A DNA stretch of 64,000 nt, from the NCBI GenBank assembly GCA_964501435.1, contig CAZCTH010000008.1, forward strand, positions 2,978 through 66,977. The letters are read 5' to 3'. Positions 1,847 to 63,709 of this stretch are shown one piece after another. Each line of letters begins with the position of its first letter. Position 1 is the first letter of the stretch. The notes below the pieces were generated by a model. The model was given only the letters and a program-made list of their open reading frames with translations. It did not search any database and was not told where the DNA came from. A program made the translations under genes and the position numbers. This DNA is from an uncultured Spirochaetales bacterium. Lineage in GTDB: Bacteria; Myxococcota_A; UBA9160; UBA6930.

Positions 1847-4120
1847 TTGAAGCGAATCGGCGGATGGGTGCTGGCGGTCGTGCTCGGGGTCGCGGCGGTG
1901 CTGTTCGTGGCGGGCAAGGGCTGGCTCGGCAGTCCCGAGAAGCCCGGGACGCCGCGCGGAGCCGCGCGCGGCGCCGCGCAGGTGGTGGCGGAGGAGGCGC
2001 GCGTCGCGAGCGCGGCCGAGGCCCTCGCGGTGCCGGAGGCGAAGCAGATCCTGTTCGGCGACCTCCACGTCCACACGACGTTCTCGTTCGACGCCTTCAT
2101 GCTCAGCATGCCCGCCATGGTGGGCGAGGGCGCGCACCCTCCGGCCGACGCCTGCGACTTCGCGCGCCACTGCTCGGCGCTCGACTTCTGGTCGATCAAC
2201 GACCACGCCGAGGGGCTGACGCGGTCGAACTGGCTCGACACCGTCGCGTCGGTGCGGCAGTGCAACGCGATCGCGGGCGAGGGCGCGCGGCCCGACACGG
2301 TCGCGTTCCTCGGCTGGGAGTGGACGCAGATCGGCGGCACGCCCGCCGATCACTACGGGCACAAGAACGTGGTGCTGCGCGGGCTCGGCGAGGGCGAAGT
2401 CCCCACGCGCCCGATCGCGGCGGGCGGCCGCGCGCTGCAGATCCGGCAGAGCGGCGGCCCGTCCTTCTTGCAGCGCAGCGTCGCCGCGCTCACGGGCGGC
2501 CACTCGCGCTACCGCGACCTCGCGCGCTACTTCGCGGACCGCGACGCGAGCGCGTTCTGCCCGAAGGGCGTGGCCGTGCGCGACCTGCCCGCGGACTGCG
2601 TCGAGGTCGCGGACACGCCGGCGGAGCTGTTCGACAAGCTCGACGACTGGGGCTTCGACTCGATCGTGATCCCGCACGGCACCACGTGGGGGTTCTACAC
2701 GCCGCCGGGCTCCCAGTGGGACAAGCAGCTCGCGGGCCGCATGCACGATGAGGATCGTCAGACGCTCCTCGAGATCTTCTCGGGGCACGGCGACTCGGAG
2801 AAGTACCGCGACTTCCGCGACGTCGAATTCGACGCGGAGGGGAACGCCGTCTGTCCGCCCGAGCAGCCGGACTACCTGCCGACCTGCGTGCGTGCGGGCG
2901 AGATCATCCGCGAGCGCTGCCTCGCGGAAGGCGCGAGCGCGGAGGCGTGCGACGAGCGCGCCGCGAAGACGCGCGCGCTCGCGGCCGCGGCCGGCGGCGC
3001 GGCGCACCTCGTGGTCGACGGCGAGTCTGCCGCGGAGTGGCGCGACGCCGGGCAGTGCCGCGATTGCGACCAGCCCGCATTCAACTACCGGCCCGGCGGC
3101 GCGGCGCAGTACATCGCCGCGCTCGGCAACTTCGACGACGACCCGACGCATCCGCGCCGCTTCCGCTTCGGTTTCATAGCGGCGAGCGACAATCACTTCG
3201 CGCGCCCGGGCACGGGCTTCAAGCAGAAGAATCGCCGCGGCAACACCGAGTCGAACGGCGAGCCGGTGACCGGGATCCTCGCCGCGCAGCAGACGGCCGC
3301 ACCGCGGGCGCCCTCGGCGCAGCCGCGGCCCTTCGACCCCGCCGGCTACTCCGGCTTCCAGCTCACCGAGTTCGAGCGTCAGGCGTCCTACTTCATGATG
3401 GGCGGCCTCACCGCGGTGCACGCGGAAGGCCGCGACCGCGATGCGGTGTGGGCTGCGCTCGAGCGCCGCGAGGTGTACGGCACGACGGGGCAACGCACGC
3501 TGCTGTGGTTCGACCTCGTGAACGCGCCGGGCGGCCCCGCGCCGATGGGCGCGCAGCGCACGCTGTCCGAGGCGCCGCAGTTCCGCGTGCGCGCCGCGGG
3601 CGCGTTCGAGCAGAAGCCCGGCTGCCCCGAAGAATCCGTCTCGGCGCTGGGCCCCGACGGCGTCGAGCGGCTGTGCAAGGGGGAGTGCCACAACCCGAGC
3701 GACGTGCGGCGCCCGATCACGCGCGTCGAGATCGTTCGCATCCGCCCGCAGCGCGCGCCGGGCGAAGCGGTCGCCGGTCTGATCGACGATCCGTTCCTCG
3801 TGCTTCCGTGCAGCGGAGATCCTGCCGGCTGCAGCGTCGAGTTCTCGGATCCGGAGTTCCCGACACTCGGGCGCGAGGCGCTCTACTACGCGCGCGTGTA
3901 CGAGGCGCCGGACGAAGCCATCAACGCGGGGGGCATCCGCTGCGAGCGCGATGAGTCGGGCCAGTGCAAGAAGGCGCAGCTCTGCCCCGGCCCCGACGGC
4001 GTAATGGACGACTGCCTCGCGCCGCGCGAGCCGCGCGCGTGGTCGTCCCCCATCTACTTGACCTGGGCGCCCCCGGTCGCGGGGCAGACGACCGCAGTCG
4101 CTGCGGCGACTGCGGACTGA
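1847..4120 (+). CDS. DUF3604-type protein (PHP-like metal-dependent phosphoesterase fold), membrane-anchored or periplasmic; paralog 1
   Basis: ORF 1799..4120. The likely start is TTG 1847, preceded by AGGAGA, giving the TM/signal segment KRIGGWVLAVVLGVAAVLFVAG. Motifs include ILFGDLHVHTTFSFDA, FWSINDHAE and IPHGTTWG, and the C-terminal half is Cys-rich. It is collinear with 6999..9221. Confidence 0.8.
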   Translation: MKRIGGWVLAVVLGVAAVLFVAGKGWLGSPEKPGTPRGAARGAAQVVAEEARVASAAEALAVPEAKQILFGDLHVHTTFSFDAFMLSMPAMVGEGAHPPADACDFARHCSALDFWSINDHAEGLTRSNWLDTVASVRQCNAIAGEGARPDTVAFLGWEWTQIGGTPADHYGHKNVVLRGLGEGEVPTRPIAAGGRALQIRQSGGPSFLQRSVAALTGGHSRYRDLARYFADRDASAFCPKGVAVRDLPADCVEVADTPAELFDKLDDWGFDSIVIPHGTTWGFYTPPGSQWDKQLAGRMHDEDRQTLLEIFSGHGDSEKYRDFRDVEFDAEGNAVCPPEQPDYLPTCVRAGEIIRERCLAEGASAEACDERAAKTRALAAAAGGAAHLVVDGESAAEWRDAGQCRDCDQPAFNYRPGGAAQYIAALGNFDDDPTHPRRFRFGFIAASDNHFARPGTGFKQKNRRGNTESNGEPVTGILAAQQTAAPRAPSAQPRPFDPAGYSGFQLTEFERQASYFMMGGLTAVHAEGRDRDAVWAALERREVYGTTGQRTLLWFDLVNAPGGPAPMGAQRTLSEAPQFRVRAAGAFEQKPGCPEESVSALGPDGVERLCKGECHNPSDVRRPITRVEIVRIRPQRAPGEAVAGLIDDPFLVLPCSGDPAGCSVEFSDPEFPTLGREALYYARVYEAPDEAINAGGIRCERDESGQCKKAQLCPGPDGVMDDCLAPREPRAWSSPIYLTWAPPVAGQTTAVAAATAD

Positions 4121-6998: not shown

Positions 6999-9221
6999 AT
7001 GCGCAAGCTCGTCATCGCGTTGCTCTCCGTCGTCGTGGTGGCCGCGCTCGCCGGGCTCGTCGTGCGCGAGGCCGGGCTCGGGCGCTTCGGGGCGCGCGAG
7101 CAAGCCGGCACGCCGCGCACGGCGCGCCGTGCCGTAGCGCCGCCGGCGACGCCCGGTGCGAAGCAGATCCTGTTCGGCGACCTCCACGTCCACACGACGT
7201 TCTCCGACGACGCGTTCACGTTCAGCCTGCCCGCCCTGGGCGGCGAGGGCGCGCATCCTCCGGCGGACGCCTGCGACTTCGCCCGCTTCTGCTCGGCGCT
7301 CGACTTCTGGTCGATCAACGACCACGCCGAGCGGCTGACGCCCCACCACTGGACCGAGATCGTGGGCTCGATCCGCGCGTGCAACGCGTCGACCGACCCC
7401 GTGAACCCCGACACGGTCGCGTTCCTCGGCTGGGAGTGGACGCAGATCGGCGACACGCCCGAGAACCACTACGGGCACAAGAACGTGGTGCTCGCGCACC
7501 TCGACGACGCGCGGATTCCCGCGCGCCCGATCGGCGCCGAGCGGCCCGCGTCGCGGCAGCTCGTGGCGGCGCCGGTGCTCGCGCGCGGCGTCGCCGCGCT
7601 CAGCGAGGGCGGCCGCTTCCACGACTTCGCGCGCTATCAGGCCGACGTCGAGGCGACTGCAATCTGCAAGAAGGGCGTGCCCGAGCGCGAGCTGCCGCAG
7701 GACTGCATCGAGCTCGCGGCGACGCCCGCGGAGCTGTTCGCGAAGCTCGACGACTGGGGGCACGACGCGATCGTGATCCCGCACGGCACCACGTGGGGCA
7801 TGTACACGCCGCCGGGCTCGAAGTGGGACAAGCAGCTCGTGGGCGCGCAGCACGACGAGCAGCGCCAGACCCTGATCGAGGTGTTCTCGGGCCACGGCGA
7901 CTCCGAGGTCTACCGCGATTGGCAGGAGATCGACTGGGACGCCGACGGCAAGCCCGTGTGCCCGCCCGCACGCGACGACTACTTGCCCTCGTGTCAGCGC
8001 GCCGCCGAGATCGTGCGCGAGCGCTGCACCGCGGCGGGCGAGGGCGCCGAGGAGTGCGAGCGCCGCGCGCAGGAGGCGCGCGCGAACTTCGTCGCCGCGG
8101 GCCTCTCGGGGCATCTCACCGTCCCCGGTGCGACGGCCGAAGACTGGCTCGACGCCGGGCAGTGTCGCGACTGCAAGACGCCGGCGTTCAACTACCGACC
8201 GCGCAGCGCGATGCAGTACATCCTCGCGCTCGGCAACTTCGACGACCCCGCGCATCCGCGCCGCTTCCGGTTCGGCGTGATCGCGGCGAGCGACAACCAC
8301 TTCGCGCGCCCCGGCACCGGCTACAAGCCGATCCGCCTCGGCCACAGCGAGGCGATGAACGGCGCCGCGCGCCCGTCGACCACGGGCATCGTCGCCAGCA
8401 CGATGGCGCCGCCGCAGGTCGCGCCGCAGCCGCGCTCGGTGCCGCTCGATCCCACGGGCCTCAGCGGCTTCCAGCTCTTCGAGACCGAGCGCCAGCAGTC
8501 CTATCTCACGACCGGCGGCCTGACCGCGGTCCACGCCGACGGCCGCGATCGCGACGCGATCTGGCGCGCGCTCCAGCGCCGCGAGGTCTACGGCACGAGC
8601 GGTCACCGCATGCAGCTCTGGTTCGACCTCGTGAATCCGCCCGGCGCCGCGCCCGGCAGTACGCGGCCGATGGGCAGCGAGGTCGTGCTGGCGGACGCCC
8701 CCGTCTTCCAGGTGCGCGCGCTCGGCTCGTTCGAGCAGAAGCCCGGCTGCCCCGACGAGAGCGTCGACGCGCTCGGGCCGGAGGACGTCGCGCGGCTGTG
8801 CCGCGGCGAGTGCCACAACCCGAGCGACGTGCGGCGTCCGATCACGCGGATCGAGATCGTGCGCATCCGCCCGCAGCAGGTGCGCGGCGAGGCGATGGCG
8901 AAGCTGATCGAGGATCCCTGGCTCACCATCGCGTGCGCGCCGAGCGCCGAGGGCTGCACCGCGACCGTGAGCGACCCGGACTTCGCGGGCGTGGGCCGCG
9001 AGACGCTCTACTACGCGCGCGCCTTCGAGGCGCCCACGCCGACGGTGAACGGCGGCGGCGTGCGCTGCGAGCGCGACGCCCAGGGCCGCTGCACCGGCGT
9101 GAGACTCTGCGCCCGCGACGATCCGAGCGAGCAGTGCACGTCGCCGGAGGAGCCGCGCGCGTGGTCGTCGCCGATCTGGGTGAGCCCCGCGCCCGCAGAG
9201 ACCGCCGTCGCCAGCAATTGA
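6999..9221 (+). CDS. DUF3604-type protein (PHP-like fold), paralog 2
   Basis: ORF 6999..9221. The N-terminal TM/signal segment is MRKLVIALLSVVVVAALAGLVV. It carries the same motifs as paralog 1 (ILFGDLHVHTTFSDDA, FWSINDHAE, IPHGTTWG, CRDC..PAFNYRP, GECHNPSDVRRPITR). Confidence 0.85.
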   Translation: MRKLVIALLSVVVVAALAGLVVREAGLGRFGAREQAGTPRTARRAVAPPATPGAKQILFGDLHVHTTFSDDAFTFSLPALGGEGAHPPADACDFARFCSALDFWSINDHAERLTPHHWTEIVGSIRACNASTDPVNPDTVAFLGWEWTQIGDTPENHYGHKNVVLAHLDDARIPARPIGAERPASRQLVAAPVLARGVAALSEGGRFHDFARYQADVEATAICKKGVPERELPQDCIELAATPAELFAKLDDWGHDAIVIPHGTTWGMYTPPGSKWDKQLVGAQHDEQRQTLIEVFSGHGDSEVYRDWQEIDWDADGKPVCPPARDDYLPSCQRAAEIVRERCTAAGEGAEECERRAQEARANFVAAGLSGHLTVPGATAEDWLDAGQCRDCKTPAFNYRPRSAMQYILALGNFDDPAHPRRFRFGVIAASDNHFARPGTGYKPIRLGHSEAMNGAARPSTTGIVASTMAPPQVAPQPRSVPLDPTGLSGFQLFETERQQSYLTTGGLTAVHADGRDRDAIWRALQRREVYGTSGHRMQLWFDLVNPPGAAPGSTRPMGSEVVLADAPVFQVRALGSFEQKPGCPDESVDALGPEDVARLCRGECHNPSDVRRPITRIEIVRIRPQQVRGEAMAKLIEDPWLTIACAPSAEGCTATVSDPDFAGVGRETLYYARAFEAPTPTVNGGGVRCERDAQGRCTGVRLCARDDPSEQCTSPEEPRAWSSPIWVSPAPAETAVASN

Positions 9222-9247
9222 GTCCCAACCCGAGCGAGGAACACCCG

Positions 9248-10027
9248 ATGAGCGCCATCCTGTACGACGTCGCCGACGGCATCGCGACGATCACCATCAA
9301 CCGCCCCGAGAAGCGCAACGCGATGTCGTTCGCGGTGCTCGGCGAGTTCCTCGAGGCGACGAAGCGCGCCGGCGAGGACGCGAGCGCGCGCGTCGTGATC
9401 GTGACGGGCGCCGGCGGCGCGTTCTGCGCGGGCACCGACCTCTCGGACCTCGCGAGCCGCCCGCCCGAGAACCGCGGCCTGCGCGGCCGAGCCGACGAGA
9501 CCGAGCGCTGGTGGCCGCTCGTGGTGTGCCCGAAGCCCGTGATCGCGGCGGTGGACGGCGCCGCAGTGGGCATGGGCGCCGAGTTCACGAGCCAGTGCGA
9601 CGTGCGCATCGCGACTCCGCGCGCGCGCTTCGCCTGGAACTTCTCGCACCGCGGCCTCGTGCCCGACACGGGGGCCGGCACCTGGATCCTGCCGCGCCTG
9701 CTCGGCCACGCGCGCGCGCTCGAGCTGCTCTATTCGGGGCGCTTCGTGGACGCGCAGGAGGCCCTCGCGCTCGGCTACGTGCTGAAGGTGGTGGAGCCCG
9801 AGAAGCTGCTCGGCGAGGCGCGCTCGCTCGCCACGAGCTTCCTCGCCGGCTCGCCGCTCTCGCACCGGCTCCTCAAGGACCTCGTCTACCAGGGCGAGTC
9901 GCGCGACTTCGCCGCGCACATGGAGGCCCACACCGAGGCGATGAAGACGTGCTTCGCCTCCGAGGACCACCGCGAGGGCGTCGCCTCGTTCCTCGAGCGC
10001 CGCGCCGCCAAGTTCGTCGGCCGCTGA
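9248..10027 (+). CDS. enoyl-CoA hydratase/isomerase family protein
   Basis: ATG 9248 lies in the frame of ORF 7379..10027. The protein reads MSAILYDVADGIATITINRPEKRNAMS...VIVTGAGGAFCAGTDL...AAVDGAAVGMGAEF, the classic crotonase fold signature. Confidence 0.9.
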   Translation: MSAILYDVADGIATITINRPEKRNAMSFAVLGEFLEATKRAGEDASARVVIVTGAGGAFCAGTDLSDLASRPPENRGLRGRADETERWWPLVVCPKPVIAAVDGAAVGMGAEFTSQCDVRIATPRARFAWNFSHRGLVPDTGAGTWILPRLLGHARALELLYSGRFVDAQEALALGYVLKVVEPEKLLGEARSLATSFLAGSPLSHRLLKDLVYQGESRDFAAHMEAHTEAMKTCFASEDHREGVASFLERRAAKFVGR

Positions 10028-59018: not shown

Positions 59019-59780
59019 ATGCGCGACGTGCGCGGCATGGGCGTGCTCGTCACGGGCGGCGGCTCCGGGCTCGGCGCCGACGCCGCGCGGCACTTCGCGG
59101 CGCGCGGGGCGCGCGTCGCGATCGCGGGGCGGCGCGCCGAGAAGCTGGGCGCGGTGGCGCGCGAGCTCGGCGGCGCGTGCGCCGCGGTGGTCGGCGACGT
59201 CACGCGCGCCGCGGATCGCGCGCGCATGCGCGAGGCGGCGCTCGCCCACGCCGGGAAGCTCGACGCGCTGGTGTGCGCGGCGGGCAACATGCTGCGCGGC
59301 CCGGTCGAGACGCTGAGCGAAGCCGCGATCCTCGAGCTGTTCCACACCAACGTGGTCGGCCACATGGCGCTGGTGGGCGAGTGCGTCGAGGCGCTCGCCG
59401 CCGCGCGCGGCGCGATCGTGTTCTTCGGCTCCGTGCACACGCGCCGGGCGTTCCCCGGCGCGTCGCCCTACGCCGCGACGAAGGGCGCGCTCGAGGCGCT
59501 GACGCGCGTGCTCGCCGCGGAGCTGGGCCCGCGCGGCATCCGCGTGAACTGCGTCGTGCCGGGCGCGGTGCCCACCGAGCTGAACGTGCGCGCGGGCCTG
59601 ATGAGCGCCGCCGAGTCGCGCGCGCGCCTCGAGGGCATGGCGCCACTGCACGCGCTCGGGCGCATCGGCAGCGGGGCCGAGGTGGCGGAGGCGGTGGAGC
59701 ACCTCGTGTGCGCGGAGTGGACCACCGGCGCCGTGCTCGACGTCGACGGCGGGCTCGGGCTCGGGCTCACGCGCGAATGA
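59019..59780 (+). CDS. SDR family oxidoreductase
   Basis: The ORF is 253 aa. Motifs: VTGGGSGLGAD, YAATKGA, TGAVLDVDGG. Confidence 0.9.
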   Translation: MRDVRGMGVLVTGGGSGLGADAARHFAARGARVAIAGRRAEKLGAVARELGGACAAVVGDVTRAADRARMREAALAHAGKLDALVCAAGNMLRGPVETLSEAAILELFHTNVVGHMALVGECVEALAAARGAIVFFGSVHTRRAFPGASPYAATKGALEALTRVLAAELGPRGIRVNCVVPGAVPTELNVRAGLMSAAESRARLEGMAPLHALGRIGSGAEVAEAVEHLVCAEWTTGAVLDVDGGLGLGLTRE

Positions 59781-59805: not shown

Positions 59806-60900
59806 TCAACGCAGCGTCTGCATCAACTCCGCGAGGCACACGGTCGCGGGGTTCTCGAGCCAGATGCGCTGGTCCGCCGGCATCTCGCCGCGCGCGACGC
59901 TGCGGTTCATCACGCGCACGACGATCGCGCAGTAGCGCGCGGCGGCCAGTACCTCGTAGTAGGTCGTGTCGCCCAGCGCAGCGCCCGCGTGCTTCTCGTA
60001 GAGCGCGCGCTGCGCCTCGCGCGTGGGCTCGCCGGGGAGGCGCGGAACGCCGCCCATCGACTCGTGGCTCCAGCGGTCGAACATCAGCCACCAGCCGAGG
60101 TCGAAGGCGCGCGGCGCGATCGCGACGTTCTCGAAGTCCGTGACGCAGGCGCAGCGGAAGTCGCTCCAGATCATGTTGCCGATGCGCGAGTCGCCCCACG
60201 AGAGCACGAGGTCGGCCTCGCGCTCTTGCGGCAGGTTCGCGCGCAGCCACGCGAAGGCGTCGCGCATCAGGGGATGCTCCCGGCCCGCGAGCTCGCGCTC
60301 GGCGTACTGCTGCCACAGGTCGAGCTGTCGCAGCGTCCCCGGCGTCGTGCCCGCGGGCGAGAGCCAGCCGAAGCCCGCGGCGCGCCAATCCACCGCGTGG
60401 ATCTGCGCGAGCACGCGCAGGCCGTCCTCGACGAGGCGCGCGCGCTCCTCGGGCTTCGCCTCGGCGAAGAATCCCTGGGCCGCGTAGGGCGGCGCGACGC
60501 CGGGCACGACGCCATCCACGAAGCCCATCACGAAGAACGGCGAGCCGAGCACGGCGGTGTCGCGCTCGAAGCCCACCAGCGGCGCCAGCGGCACGCGCGA
60601 GTGGCGTGCGAGCGCGTCCATCGTGCGCCACTGGATCTCGATCTCGACGTCGAGGCCGGGCGCCTGCACCGGGTAGACGGCGGGCTCCGGCATCTCGCGG
60701 CGCAGCACGTACTTCTCGGCGCCCTCCGCGCCGGCGCGTCGCACGCGCGCTTCGACGAGCAGCGTCTCGGCCGAGTAGCCGCCCGACAGCCGGCGCGGCG
60801 GCGCGATGCGCACCGCCTCCGCCCCGGCGAGGCGCGCCCCGAGCCAGTGCTCCAGGTTCGCGATGCTGCCCTCCGCGATGCTCGACTGTGCCTCCGCCAC
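59806..60900 (-). CDS. phosphotransferase family protein (APH/choline-kinase-like fold)
   Basis: The ORF is 364 aa. It has the Brenner-like motif LVLSWGDSRIGNMIW and the metal-binding motif VTDFENV. The overall pattern resembles the phosphotransferases often found next to acyl-CoA metabolism genes. Confidence 0.8.
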   Translation of the reverse strand: MAEAQSSIAEGSIANLEHWLGARLAGAEAVRIAPPRRLSGGYSAETLLVEARVRRAGAEGAEKYVLRREMPEPAVYPVQAPGLDVEIEIQWRTMDALARHSRVPLAPLVGFERDTAVLGSPFFVMGFVDGVVPGVAPPYAAQGFFAEAKPEERARLVEDGLRVLAQIHAVDWRAAGFGWLSPAGTTPGTLRQLDLWQQYAERELAGREHPLMRDAFAWLRANLPQEREADLVLSWGDSRIGNMIWSDFRCACVTDFENVAIAPRAFDLGWWLMFDRWSHESMGGVPRLPGEPTREAQRALYEKHAGAALGDTTYYEVLAAARYCAIVVRVMNRSVARGEMPADQRIWLENPATVCLAELMQTLR

Positions 60901-61043
60901 GGCTCCTCGCCCCCTCCGCGTAACTTTTGCGCCCGCTCGCGCGTCTGGCGTCGTAGCTTATGCGAGCGCCGTCACAGATCGCCTGCGCGGAGTCGAGTGA
61001 CCCTGCGCCCCGCAGCTCACCGCACGCTCGGGCTCCCTTCGGA

Positions 61044-61454
61044 ATGGCCACCGCCTATCGCATCCTCTCGGGAATCGTCGGCACCGCCTTCGTGGCGGGA
61101 GGCCTGGTGCTGTTCGCGGCCTTCTTCGCCTACCAGCGCCCCGGCAGCGAGGCGCCGCTGCCGGGCGGCCCGTTCGCGCACTACTTCGCAGCGACGGCCG
61201 GCTGCGCGCTCGTCGGCTGGGGCGGCGCCCTCGCCGCAGGCGCCGTCCGCGGCGATCTCGCGCGCTCGCTCGGCACCGCCACGGCCGTCGCCCTCGCGAT
61301 GCTCGCGCTGATGCGCATGCTCGCCTGGTTCAGCGGCGACTACTACGCGGTCGCCGGGAACGCGCCGCGCATCGAGGCGGGCGTGTTCCTCGCCGCGGCG
61401 CTCGGCTTCGTGTGGCTGCGCCCGCGCAGCGGCACGCGGAAGATCTGGTCGTGA
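61044..61454 (+). CDS. hypothetical integral membrane protein
   Basis: ATG 61044 is residue 29 of ORF 60960..61454. It has four hydrophobic segments (MATAYRILSGIVGTAFVAGGLVLFAAFFAY...). Its stop overlaps the next gene's GTG (GTGA). Confidence 0.55.
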   Translation: MATAYRILSGIVGTAFVAGGLVLFAAFFAYQRPGSEAPLPGGPFAHYFAATAGCALVGWGGALAAGAVRGDLARSLGTATAVALAMLALMRMLAWFSGDYYAVAGNAPRIEAGVFLAAALGFVWLRPRSGTRKIWS

Positions 61455-62050
61455 CGCGCTGGCTCGCCTCCGCGGCGCTCGCGCTGCTGTTCGCGCTGAA
61501 CGCGGCGCTGCCGCACATCCCGTTCGCGCGCCGCGGCAGCGAGCGCAGCGTGCGCGCGCACGTGGCGGCGGCTTCCCAGCTCGTCGGCCAAGCGCTGCCC
61601 GCGCTCACGTTCGAGGACGGCGCCGGCCGCGCGGTGCGCCTCGGCGACCTCGTGGACCGACCGATCCTGTTGATCTTCGAACGCAGCGTGGATTGGTGAC
61701 CCTTCACCAAGGCGCGGCTCGTGGAGCTGCGGAACGCGCTGGCCGGCGAGCCCGAGCTCGAGATCGTGTGGGTGATGGCGAAGGGCCAGTACAACGCGCG
61801 CTCGGATCGCTTCATCGACGAGTACGGGCTGCGCGGCCGCATCCACTTCTGGCGCGACCCCGATTCGCGCGCGATCGACGCGCTCGGCCTGCGCCGCCCG
61901 AACCCCGAGCCGATCGAGGCGGGCGTGCCGCATCCGACGTCGCTCTTGCTCGATCGCACGGGCGTCGTGCGCTTCGTCGACGTGCGCGAGGACTACCGCC
62001 TGTGGCTCGACCCCGCGACGCTGCGCGAGGCGCTCGCGACGCTGCGCTGA
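61451..62050 (+). CDS. thioredoxin-fold Prx-like (AhpC/TSA, PRX_like2-type) protein with an in-frame TGA at 61697-61699; probable selenocysteine-containing protein
   Basis: ORFs 61412..61699 and 61721..62050 share one frame and are separated only by that TGA. Read-through gives ...DRPILLIFERSVDW[TGA]PFTKARLVELRNAL... followed later by ...GVPHPTSLLLDRTGVVRF. The TGA therefore sits at the Cys position of the W-C-P-x-C redox motif. The N-terminal signal/anchor is VTRWLASAALALLFALNAAL. Confidence 0.6.
61713..61731 (+). promoter_or_regulatory. candidate bacterial SECIS stem-loop
   Basis: The structure is C GCGGCU [CGUGG] AGCUGC G, a 7-bp stem (one G-U pair) with a 5-nt loop containing GU. The stem begins 13-14 nt after TGA 61697-61699. 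Confidence 0.45.
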
Positions 62051-62074
62051 GCGCCCCGACCGCCCCCCGGCCTC

Positions 62075-63709
62075 TCAAGCCTTCGCGTTCGCCGCCTCGT
62101 ACAGCTTCTTCGCCGCCGGATAGTCCGCCTTGCCGTTCGGCGCGCGCGGCACGCGCGGCACGAGCACGAGATCCTTCGGCAGCTTGTAGGACGAGAGGCG
62201 CCGCTTCGCGTCGGCGATCACGTCCTCCGCCGACGCGCTTGCGCCCTGCGCGAGCGAGGCCACGCCCACGACGCGGTTGCCGAAGCGGTCGTCCGGCACG
62301 CCGAACACGAGCGCGTCTTCGACGGCGTCGTGCTTCTTGAGCGCTTCCTCCACCTCTTCGGGGAAGACCTTCTCGCCGCCCGTGTTGATGCAGTTCGAGC
62401 CGCGCCCGAGCAGCGTGATCGTGCCGTCGGCTTCGACCGTGGCCATGTCGCCCGGGAACGAGTACCGCACGCCGTTGACGGTGCGGAACGTGCGCGCCGA
62501 CTTCTCAGGGTCCTTGTAGTAGGCGAGGGGCACCATGCCGCCGTTGGCGATCATGCCGATCTCGCCGGAGCCGGGCGCGACCTCGCTGCCGTCGTCCTTG
62601 AACACGCGCGTGGTCGGGTTCAGCTTGAACTTGGCGGTCTCGGCCGTGGCGCCCTTCTTCGCGAAGGACATGCCCATGCCGCCCTCCGTCGAACCGAGCA
62701 CGTCGGCGATCGTGAGGCCGGGCAGATGCTTCGTGAGCGCCTGCTTCACCTCGAGTGAGAACATCGCGCCGCTCGAGACCATCAGGGAGAGACAGGAGGC
62801 GTCCCAGCGCCCCGGGTGCTCTTCGAGCGCGCGCAGCATCGGCTTCGCGAACGCGTCGCCGACGACGACGAGCAGGTTCACGCGGTTGCGCGCCACGACG
62901 TCCCACAGCTCGAGCGCGTCGAGGCCGCGCTTCTCGAGCAGCACCGCGGTGCCGCCGAGCATGTGCGGCACCATCATGCCGAGCCAGCAGCCGGTGCCGT
63001 GCATCAGCGGCGGGCCGGACATCGACACGGTGGCCTTGCCCGCGTCGCGCAGCTCCTTCGCGAGCGCCGGCAGCGTCGCGACGTCCTTCACCCGCGGCAG
63101 CCCCACCATCTGCGGGTAGGTGCTCAGGAAGAAATCGGTGAACCCGGACAGCGGGTACATCACGCCCTTCGGCATGCCCGTCGTGCCGCCGGTGTAGAAC
63201 ATGTAGACCTCGTCGCCCTGCGGAGCGATGCGCGCGGCCGGCGAGAGCTGGCGCTGGAGGTCCTCGTAGCGGACGGCGCGCGGTACACCGTGGGTGCCGT
63301 CGGCCGCGGGGCCGTCGTCCACCTCCACGAGCAGCTTCAGCTTCGGCATGCGCGGCGCGACGCGCGCCACGCGGTCGCCGAGCGAGCTGTGGAAGACGAG
63401 CGCCTCGGCGTCGGCGTTGTCGAGTAGGTACGCGAGCTCGTCCTCGAGGTAGCGGTAGTTCACGTTGACGGGGATGCCGCGGATCTTCAGCGCGGCGAAG
63501 TTCGTCTCGCAGTACTCCGGCGCGTTGTAGAGGTACATGCCCACCTTCGCGTGGGCGCCGAGGCCCGCGTCGAGGAAGGCCTGGGCAAGCCGGCCGGCGC
63601 GGGCGTCGTAGTCGCGCCACGAGACGGTCCGTGCGCCTTGGACCACGGCCGGCGCGTCGGGGGTCGCGTCGGCCACCTGTTCCCAGAGGAAGCTGAAGTG
63701 GGTGTGCAT
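62075..63709 (-). CDS. acyl-CoA synthetase (AMP-binding / adenylate-forming enzyme)
   Basis: ATG 63709 lies in the frame of ORF 62075..63997 (-). The protein begins MHTHFSFLWEQVADATPDAPAVV. The AMP-binding signature is MFYTGGTTGMPKGV, and the C-terminal segment reads GDMATVEADGTITLLGRGSNCINTGGEKV. Confidence 0.9.
   Translation of the reverse strand: MHTHFSFLWEQVADATPDAPAVVQGARTVSWRDYDARAGRLAQAFLDAGLGAHAKVGMYLYNAPEYCETNFAALKIRGIPVNVNYRYLEDELAYLLDNADAEALVFHSSLGDRVARVAPRMPKLKLLVEVDDGPAADGTHGVPRAVRYEDLQRQLSPAARIAPQGDEVYMFYTGGTTGMPKGVMYPLSGFTDFFLSTYPQMVGLPRVKDVATLPALAKELRDAGKATVSMSGPPLMHGTGCWLGMMVPHMLGGTAVLLEKRGLDALELWDVVARNRVNLLVVVGDAFAKPMLRALEEHPGRWDASCLSLMVSSGAMFSLEVKQALTKHLPGLTIADVLGSTEGGMGMSFAKKGATAETAKFKLNPTTRVFKDDGSEVAPGSGEIGMIANGGMVPLAYYKDPEKSARTFRTVNGVRYSFPGDMATVEADGTITLLGRGSNCINTGGEKVFPEEVEEALKKHDAVEDALVFGVPDDRFGNRVVGVASLAQGASASAEDVIADAKRRLSSYKLPKDLVLVPRVPRAPNGKADYPAAKKLYEAANAKA

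Follow-up and report, generated by a model that had tools for sequence, protein, structure and literature searches.

A probable selenoprotein gene for an anchored, TlpA-like thioredoxin-fold protein, paired with a four-helix membrane protein, in Myxococcota-type genomes

Introduction

Does a single in-frame TGA separate two short genes, or does it encode selenocysteine (Sec) inside one longer gene? This question is raised by a locus on contig CAZCTH010000008.1 of assembly GCA_964501435.1, deposited as an uncultured Spirochaetales bacterium. We analysed a stretch of 64,000 nucleotides of this contig, hereafter the window, with a G+C content of 72%. Two open reading frames (ORFs), 61412..61699 and 61721..62050, lie there in the same frame, and the sole stop between them is the TGA at 61697-61699. 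An earlier note, made from the letters of the window alone, had described this arrangement correctly and proposed that the two ORFs are one Sec-containing gene.

Here, we report that 61451..62050 is, with a probability of about 0.88, one selenoprotein gene with Sec at codon 83, a Sec insertion sequence (SECIS) element, an anchored thioredoxin fold, and an operon with a partner gene whose product has four transmembrane (TM) helices. We favor this reading because the UGA stands at the position of the homologues' redox Cys, is kept across species, and is followed by a hairpin that is invariant only where the UGA is present. The features of the locus, with the evidence for each, are as follows.

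61044..61454 (+): partner gene, 136 amino acids, four predicted TM helices, no Pfam family (ORF, homologues upstream in related loci, AlphaFold2 model)
61438-61443 (+): Shine–Dalgarno-like GGAAGA (sequence)
61451..61454 (+): GTGA overlap of the selenoprotein start GTG with the partner's stop TGA (sequence; most related loci)
61451..62050 (+): probable selenoprotein gene, membrane-anchored TlpA-like thioredoxin fold with the motif W-U-P-F-T (translation, Pfam, homologues, substitution ratios)
61460..61510 (+): N-terminal hydrophobic helix, about residues 4-20, WLASAALALLFALNAAL, predicted anchor or uncleaved signal (sequence, AlphaFold2 model of the homologue P0003, anchored relatives)
61697..61699 (+): in-frame TGA, probable Sec codon 83, just before the active-site helix (TGA/Cys column, alignments, AlphaFold2 model)
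61706..61708 (+): codon of Thr86 (ACC), in the place of the second (resolving) Cys of a CxxC motif (HMMER alignments)
61713..61731 (+): probable SECIS hairpin, with 5' arm 61713-61719, loop CGUGG 61720-61724, and 3' arm 61725-61731 (bacterial SECIS criteria, conservation)

Results

One reading frame of 199 codons

From the GTG at 61451-61453, the frame comprises 199 codons and ends with a stop at 62048-62050. Read-through of the TGA gives ...LLIFERSVDW, the TGA position, then PFTKARLVELRNAL...; over a longer span it reads ...DRPILLIFERSVDW, the TGA position, then PFTKARLVELRNAL...GVPHPTSLLLDRTGVVRFVDVRED..., in exact agreement with the peptide that had been quoted before. The start codon overlaps the TGA stop of the partner gene (61452-61454), and the coupling to an upstream membrane protein that had been proposed from this GTGA overlap is borne out, as the overlap is found in most related loci as well. 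The N-terminus V/M-T-R-W-L-A-S... agrees with M-(I)-L-R-x-L-A-S/T in full-length homologues and fits a start at 61451. When Cys is substituted for the stop, the Pfam domain AhpC-TSA (PF00578) crosses the TGA, matching residues 45-175 to profile positions 1-123 of 124 (E = 3.6e-10, 40.3 bits against a cut-off of 26). A promoter and terminator scan of 60700-62300 returned no sites.

The TGA column among relatives

One genome per species was scanned for relatives across 185,579 species, and 64 loci were returned, nearly all from metagenome-assembled genomes labelled Myxococcota or Deltaproteobacteria, plus two from Binatia. The family considered below consists of the window and the 56 loci with an aligned column (n = 57). 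In this column we found TGA in the window and in 43 species-level genomes, TGC or TGT in 12, and TCC in one. Full-length homologues read FERS(V/I/L)DW-C-PF(T/S)K there, and DW-C-PF(T/S) is present in all 19 of those aligned. The alignment therefore supports the earlier proposal of one Sec gene with TGA at a redox Cys, the homologues reading FERSVDW-C-PFTKARL and the TGA being present in 44 of the 57 members. The TGA-bearing relatives are 46-86% identical to the window protein, and the protein sequence flanking the column is conserved on either side in all members.

We compared the window with its eight closest relatives and estimated the ratio of nonsynonymous to synonymous substitution rates (dN/dS) on each side of the TGA. 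The ratio was 0.20-0.49 over the 60 codons before the TGA and 0.10-0.45 over the 116 codons after it, with dS between 0.3 and 1.2. Because dN/dS is below 0.5 on both sides, both halves are translated and under purifying selection.

The public protein collections reflect the in-frame TGA. A search of 5.8 billion proteins yielded about 35 full-length relatives of 199 amino acids (43-57% identity) and about 80 distinct relatives of 109 amino acids (60-88% identity), the latter starting at the residue that matches GTG 61721. A profile search of 1.84 billion cluster representatives gave the same pattern together with many 82-residue proteins on profile positions 1-82, which are N-terminal halves ending at the TGA. 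No full-length Sec form was annotated in either search. It had been anticipated that standard gene callers would split this gene, and indeed the callers gave products of 82 and 109 amino acids in four independent Logan assemblies from different runs. Three of these four assemblies cover the site, and their DNA is identical to the window, TGA included.

These data bear on two simpler explanations. The TGA could have arisen in a Cys gene by nonsense mutation, or through faulty sequencing or assembly, which would make the locus a pseudogene or an artefact; the callers and NCBI annotate fragments only, and Cys-encoding homologues do exist. However, 43 further species-level genomes share the TGA, as do three independent assemblies of identical sequence, purifying selection acts on both halves, and a TGA-specific hairpin is kept at synonymous sites (see below), so we give this explanation practically no credence. 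Alternatively, there could be two genes, one for an 82-residue anchored peptide ending at the TGA and another for a 109-residue protein starting at GTG 61721. This is the annotation produced by the callers, products of both sizes are abundant across the protein collection, and GTG is a possible start codon. Yet the seven codons from the TGA to this GTG (PFTKARL) are conserved in frame in all members, and the GTG itself lies inside the loop of the conserved hairpin. Moreover, the full-length Cys forms are single polypeptides, and both the Pfam domain and the predicted fold need the two halves, a strand (71-76) and a helix (84-96) flanking the site. Two separate genes are thus highly improbable, and we return to a single selenoprotein gene.

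In a neighbour-joining tree, the Cys forms occupy at least three separate positions. Since they are scattered among deep Sec branches, the tree suggests that Sec is ancestral in the family and was swapped for Cys several times. The single Ser form (TCC, L032:10247) has a Cys form, L036, as its sister, and may be an inactive or functionally shifted variant. Eight records that carry the Myxococcota-type module (L005, L015, L027, L031, L034, L039, L042, and L047) are titled 'Spirochaetaceae' or 'Spirochaetales', and one isolate among the carriers so titled is named HK-STAS-MYXO-51. This suggests that these metagenome-assembled genomes are taxonomically mislabelled.

A hairpin that is conserved only with the TGA

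The hairpin at 61713-61731 consists of the arms CGCGGCU and AGCUGCG and the loop CGUGG. Its 7-bp stem, which includes one G-U pair, begins 13 nt 3' of the TGA, as had been described, and the spacing from the UGA to the loop is 20 nt. The bacterial SECIS (bSECIS) model specifies a loop of 3-9 nt, a stem of 4-16 bp, a G in the first two loop positions, the loop pattern N1-G-[G/U]-N-N2 in which N1 pairs with N2, a distance of 16-37 nt from the UGA to the loop, and a minimum free energy (MFE) of at most -7.5 kcal/mol (PMC13188914). The window hairpin fits every one of these criteria (C-G-U-G-G, 7-8 bp, 20 nt, -11.8 kcal/mol). All 44 TGA forms pass as well, with hairpins of -9.2 to -11.8 kcal/mol, whereas the hairpin is lost in 11 of the 13 non-TGA (Cys/Ser) forms.

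Among the 44 TGA forms, the stretch AAG GCG CGG CTC GTS GAG CTG CG, from +12 to +34 counted from the T of the TGA, is virtually invariant. The four third-codon positions within the stem (+17, +20, +29, and +32) are identical in every Sec form, while the variable third positions are +26, in the loop, and +35, just beyond the stem. Only one of 21 other third positions between -12 and +74 is invariant (hypergeometric p of about 4e-4, by our own count). The 13 non-TGA forms, on the other hand, vary freely at the stem sites, in their amino acids too (ARLLGL, MRLLEL, ARIQEL). For example, the Arg codon is CGG in 44 of 44 Sec forms as compared to 4 of the 13 non-TGA forms (Fisher p = 8e-8), and the other three stem codons tested gave Fisher p values from 1e-4 to 4e-7. 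Two Cys forms, L030:10244 (TGT) and L038:868 (TGC), are exceptions with an intact hairpin (-10.6 and -11.8 kcal/mol, respectively), and look like recent Sec-to-Cys conversions in which the SECIS has yet to decay.

The fold of 61694-61760 is better than that of shuffled sequences with z = -2.09. As this value is only mild, the significance of the hairpin rests on the comparative data and not on folding energy alone. Two other structures in this region were rejected as functional elements. The larger MFE structure of 61694-61760 uses freely varying downstream sequence for its outer pairs. In the same fold, a 6-bp hairpin at 61694-61709 (UGGUGA/UCACCA) sequesters the UGA; TTC>TAC and ACC>ACG changes disrupt it in many Sec forms, and it is probably incidental.

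Other selenoprotein signals

TGA ends 23 of the 30 long coding ORFs in the window, among them the partner gene and the selenoprotein gene itself. Being a normal stop in this DNA, TGA is not a reassigned codon. We also scanned the window for further in-frame TGAs with open frames on both sides, high G+C at third codon positions, and a bSECIS-like hairpin. Only the TGA at 61697 was protein-like; the other candidates proved to be Arg-, Ser-, and Ala-rich translations of wrong frames. The only tRNA gene in the window, at 3234-3321 (-), is a tRNA-Ser (GCT) and not a tRNA-Sec.

In one related locus, L013, a PrdB-like gene (9036-9602, +) with a TGA at 9144 lies just upstream of a fused gene for the membrane and thioredoxin-fold proteins, here in the Sec form. 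Its product matches the D-proline reductase PrdB model TIGR04483 (E = 4.9e-19, below the equivalog cut-off) and carries the motif LLAPV-U-PDC (U-P-D-C, a UxxC motif). An 11-bp hairpin with the identical CGUGG loop begins 17 nt past this TGA, and the gene is a probable second selenoprotein gene. Neither the window nor the remaining loci yielded such a PrdB-like gene. Among selenoproteins, the PrdB-like proteins form a recognised UxxC family (PMC2398784, PMC13188914), and Deltaproteobacteria, the class label of these genomes, have been described as selenoprotein-rich (PMC5029168). Together, the TGA-containing gene of L013 and this richness lend indirect support to the use of Sec in the lineage.

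Fold, active site, and family placement

We modelled a Cys homologue, P0003 (57% identical, alignment of 31 sequences), with AlphaFold2 (pLDDT 87). The model comprises an N-terminal helix (2-20) and a thioredoxin fold, with Cys83 between the strand 71-76 and the helix 84-96, the canonical position of the nucleophile. The N-terminal helix is predicted to be a membrane anchor or an uncleaved signal.

Profile matches to solved structures were led by the pneumococcal surface protein Etrx2 (4.7e-10), followed by Geobacter 3hdc (1e-6), TlpA (2.3e-5), and ResA (2.3e-5). In HMMER alignments with Etrx2, 3hdc, 5um7, and TlpA, the Cys/Sec of the family falls on the first Cys of WCGPC, WCPYC, or WCPDC, and Thr86 on the second Cys of WCxxC; this residue is Thr or, in a few members, Ser throughout the family. 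The invariant Pro162 aligns to the cis-Pro of TlpA (...GMPTSVLVD...), and its cis-Pro assignment comes from this alignment. The equivalent family segment, GVPHPT, aligns with the TlpA cis-Pro segment, probably in the region of the catalytic Arg of peroxiredoxins (Prx). The window protein is without any Cys, and therefore Sec83 would be its only redox residue.

Is the protein, then, a genuine peroxiredoxin, that is, a thiol peroxidase of the AhpC, Tpx, or BCP type with Sec as the peroxidatic residue? The AhpC-TSA match lies above its cut-off, the names given by the Joint Genome Institute (JGI) to relatives include 'peroxiredoxin', and the top Foldseek matches include Tpx, AhpE, and BCP at about 1e-9. 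However, ResA, TlpA, CcmG, and Etrx reach similar Foldseek scores (1e-8 to 1e-10 for the whole set), TlpA, ResA, and CcmG being nearly equal to the peroxiredoxins. Because these scores are similar, the fold alone cannot part peroxiredoxins from TlpA-like proteins, whereas the sequence profiles do part them, since Etrx2, 3hdc, TlpA, and ResA are the best solved relatives. The peroxiredoxin signature PxxxT/SxxC is absent: the residues before Sec are F-E-R-S-V-D-W, with no Pro at -7 and Val, Ile, or Leu at -3. Moreover, Sec takes the place of the first Cys of WCxxC, and the catalytic Arg of peroxiredoxins probably sits where Pro162 and the cis-Pro of TlpA align. The Pfam family AhpC-TSA also matches TlpA-like thioredoxins. 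When NCBIfam was searched with E values up to 1, no selenoprotein model was matched, and the only match was a TlpA model, NF047696 (E = 4e-4, 20 bits against a cut-off of 230).

We therefore consider a true peroxiredoxin unlikely. The earlier description of a Prx-like/AhpC-TSA selenoprotein held for the thioredoxin fold and the AhpC-TSA match, but not for a catalytic peroxiredoxin. By sequence, the closest relatives of the family are the anchored thioredoxins of the TlpA/ResA/Etrx type.

The upstream membrane partner

A homologue of the partner lies directly upstream in all 55 related loci with enough flanking sequence, with Sec and Cys forms alike. In most of them, the two genes share the same 4-nt overlap, and the partner's stop ends 243 nt before the Sec codon. 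In-frame fusions of the two genes occur in L013 (9581-10597, 338 amino acids), L057 (9461-10498, 345 amino acids), and P0096 (336 amino acids), and two of these three carry the Sec TGA.

The partner is modelled by AlphaFold2 as a four-helix bundle (pLDDT 91). Its only Pfam match is DUF4149 at E = 0.28, and its best fold match in the PDB, with VKOR and DsbB included, has E = 0.66; it is named only "hypothetical protein". The most conserved features are W95-x-x-G-D-Y, R109-x-E111, and W124-L-R-P, and it contains neither a CxxC motif nor paired loop cysteines. We considered Cys54 in TM2 as a resolving thiol and rejected this candidate, since L012 and L020 lack the TM2 Cys, which is thus no obligatory resolving thiol. 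From its charge distribution, the partner appears to have both ends in the cytoplasm, which would place the thioredoxin-fold domain of the fusions outside the cytoplasm, like TlpA, ResA, and Etrx.

Around the gene pair, the window encodes a short-chain dehydrogenase/reductase (SDR) at 59019..59780 (+), an APH-type phosphotransferase at 59806..60900 (-), and a convergent AMP-dependent ligase at 62075..~63710 (-), 24 nt past the selenoprotein stop. The gene calls of L065 add a P450 and another SDR immediately upstream. The P450, SDR, APH, and AMP-ligase neighbours are common only to the closest relatives, and the conserved unit is the two-gene module.

Discussion

A proposed mechanism

Following the established bacterial pathway, the complex of SelB, GTP, and Sec-tRNA(Sec) would bind the apical loop of the hairpin (G24, U25) and deliver Sec at the UGA, and translation would run on to the stop at 62048-62050. 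The translationally coupled two-gene operon would in this way make the selenoprotein together with the 4-TM protein. With lower confidence, we propose that the thioredoxin-fold domain probably lies at the inner membrane's outer face, where it would dock to the 4-TM partner, and that the protein probably works through a single selenol as a reductase or peroxidase. Attack of the selenolate on an oxidised substrate (a disulfide, a sulfenate, or a peroxide) would form a Se-S or Se-OH intermediate, which an external thiol would resolve. The partner may act as a docking or regeneration subunit, or may itself be the substrate.

Weighing the evidence

Several observations weigh against the selenoprotein reading or parts of it. 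ARAGORN found no tRNA-Sec, and tblastn found no SelA, SelB, or SelD, in the window or in the 64 related loci with about 1 Mb of flanks; these negatives cover the window and the related flanks, are uninformative on the remaining genome, and for tblastn used E. coli SelA, SelB, and SelD sequences as queries. The Sec forms share descent, and the 44/44 counts are hence not independent events. The stem shows essentially no covariation: six of eight pairs never vary, and the one compensatory change, from C-G to G-C at the loop-closing pair of L011, is equalled in 74 of 500 shuffles. As the stem does not vary, its structure is backed by conservation and not by compensatory change. No Rfam match was obtained, either at gathering thresholds on the whole window or with E up to 10 on 61660-61800, although this negative carries little weight because the bacterial SECIS models of Rfam are lineage-specific. 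The SECIS-like hairpin claimed earlier stands by the bSECIS criteria and by its TGA-linked conservation. With regard to the partner and the membrane arrangement, the TM2 Cys, though common, is missing from L012 and L020; the helix of the anchor is followed by a conserved GRRG, which makes the positive-inside rule ambiguous there; and both topology and function are inferred.

The lack of Sec machinery in the window and related flanks would also agree with read-through of the UGA without Sec, either by a near-cognate Trp or Cys tRNA or through stimulation by the hairpin without SelB, and downstream structures can stimulate read-through in some systems. However, the aligned residue in the non-TGA homologues is Cys, never Trp or Gly. 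In addition, both the loop pattern and the spacing of the hairpin agree with a bSECIS of the SelB type, the PrdB-like neighbour in L013 has the same arrangement in a recognised selenoprotein family, and TGA is the main stop codon of the window. We regard such read-through as very unlikely and retain the insertion of Sec as the explanation.

Comparison with known systems

Catalogued kin among bacterial selenoproteins include 'Prx-like thiol:disulfide oxidoreductase' (PF00578, UxxC/UxxU), 'Redoxin family protein' (PF08534, UxxC), 'Thiol-disulfide isomerase-like' (cd02966, UxxC), the 'UGC-containing TlpA family', and 'Peroxiredoxin-like family' (cd02970, UxxS) (PMC2398784 Table 2, PMC13188914). 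The present family shares with the AhpC-TSA, Redoxin, and TlpA selenoproteins the fold superfamily, a Sec at the N-terminal redox Cys, a SECIS right after the UGA, the existence of Cys homologues, and the systematic misannotation of the genes. It differs from the catalogued Prx- and thioredoxin-like selenoproteins in its U-P-F-T motif (Ser in place of Thr in a few members), in having no second Cys or Sec, in its obligatory adjacent or fused 4-TM partner, and in its Sec form, which predominates and looks ancestral. The family matches none of these listed motifs and no NCBIfam selenoprotein model. The cd02970 UxxS family (for example, MDX2448127.1) is set apart by its listed motif only, and it is possible that it is identical with the present family.

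Like TlpA, ResA, CcmG, and Etrx1-2 (1jfu, 4txo, 1st9, 2b1k, 2yp6, 4hqz), which are extracytoplasmic thioredoxins with a membrane or lipid anchor, the protein has an N-terminal anchor, W-C at the N-terminus of a helix (with Sec for Cys), the predicted fold, and an aligned cis-Pro loop, G-x-P-T-x-x-L-I/L-D-x-x-G. Those proteins use a Cys-x-x-Cys pair that is recycled by CcdA or DsbD, whereas the present protein has Sec and then Thr; it also has a two-residue insertion (V-D) before the Trp, and its 4-TM partner is unrelated and lacks a Cys pair.

Glutathione peroxidases (GPx; PF00255, U/C-x-x-T) likewise have a single selenol at the nucleophile position and a Thr three residues later. The family also has an invariant Gln (Q113) after the next beta-strand and an invariant Trp (W185) near the C-terminus, which is reminiscent of the Sec-Gln-Trp arrangement of GPx, a likeness by sequence position only. 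The profile hits contained no natural GPx, only a GPX4 designed de novo (E = 0.43), and the 50 best Foldseek matches contained none either. Neither sequence nor fold shows a detectable leaning towards GPx; the likeness is a resemblance of chemistry only. GPX-like proteins are listed as UxxT selenoproteins (PMC13188914).

The arrangement of the module, with a four-helix membrane protein, a linking TM helix, and a thioredoxin-fold domain, encoded by separate coupled genes or by one fused gene, also resembles DsbB-DsbA and the bacterial VKOR-thioredoxin fusions. Unlike DsbB and VKOR, the partner has no CxxC motif, Pfam match, or fold match, and the analogy is architectural, not homologous.

Significance

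The finding does not overturn current understanding, as no kind of bacterial selenoprotein is commoner than thioredoxin-fold proteins with Cys homologues. It adds a family that current NCBIfam selenoprotein models miss. The gene is publicly stored only as fragments of 82 and 109 amino acids named "hypothetical" or "peroxiredoxin", and its recognition would repair dozens of Myxococcota-type genomes. Across 44 species the 19-nt hairpin is frozen amid synonymous sites that are saturated, and it decays after a change from TGA to TGC or TGT, which makes the family an unusually clean natural experiment on SECIS conservation.

We tentatively propose, as a possibility that we rate below even odds, that the window protein is the first example of an uncatalogued TlpA-like 'DW-U-PFT' family in which Sec is the ancestral and prevailing state, kept by an invariant, phylum-wide SECIS, and whose members work only with a novel 4-TM partner, as a new envelope selenium redox module of Myxococcota and relatives. 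Such a module may be a membrane-linked, one-selenol peroxidase or reductase that bypasses the CcdA/DsbD thiol relay. The strict pairing and occasional fusion with the 4-TM protein point to a two-component redox system of the envelope.

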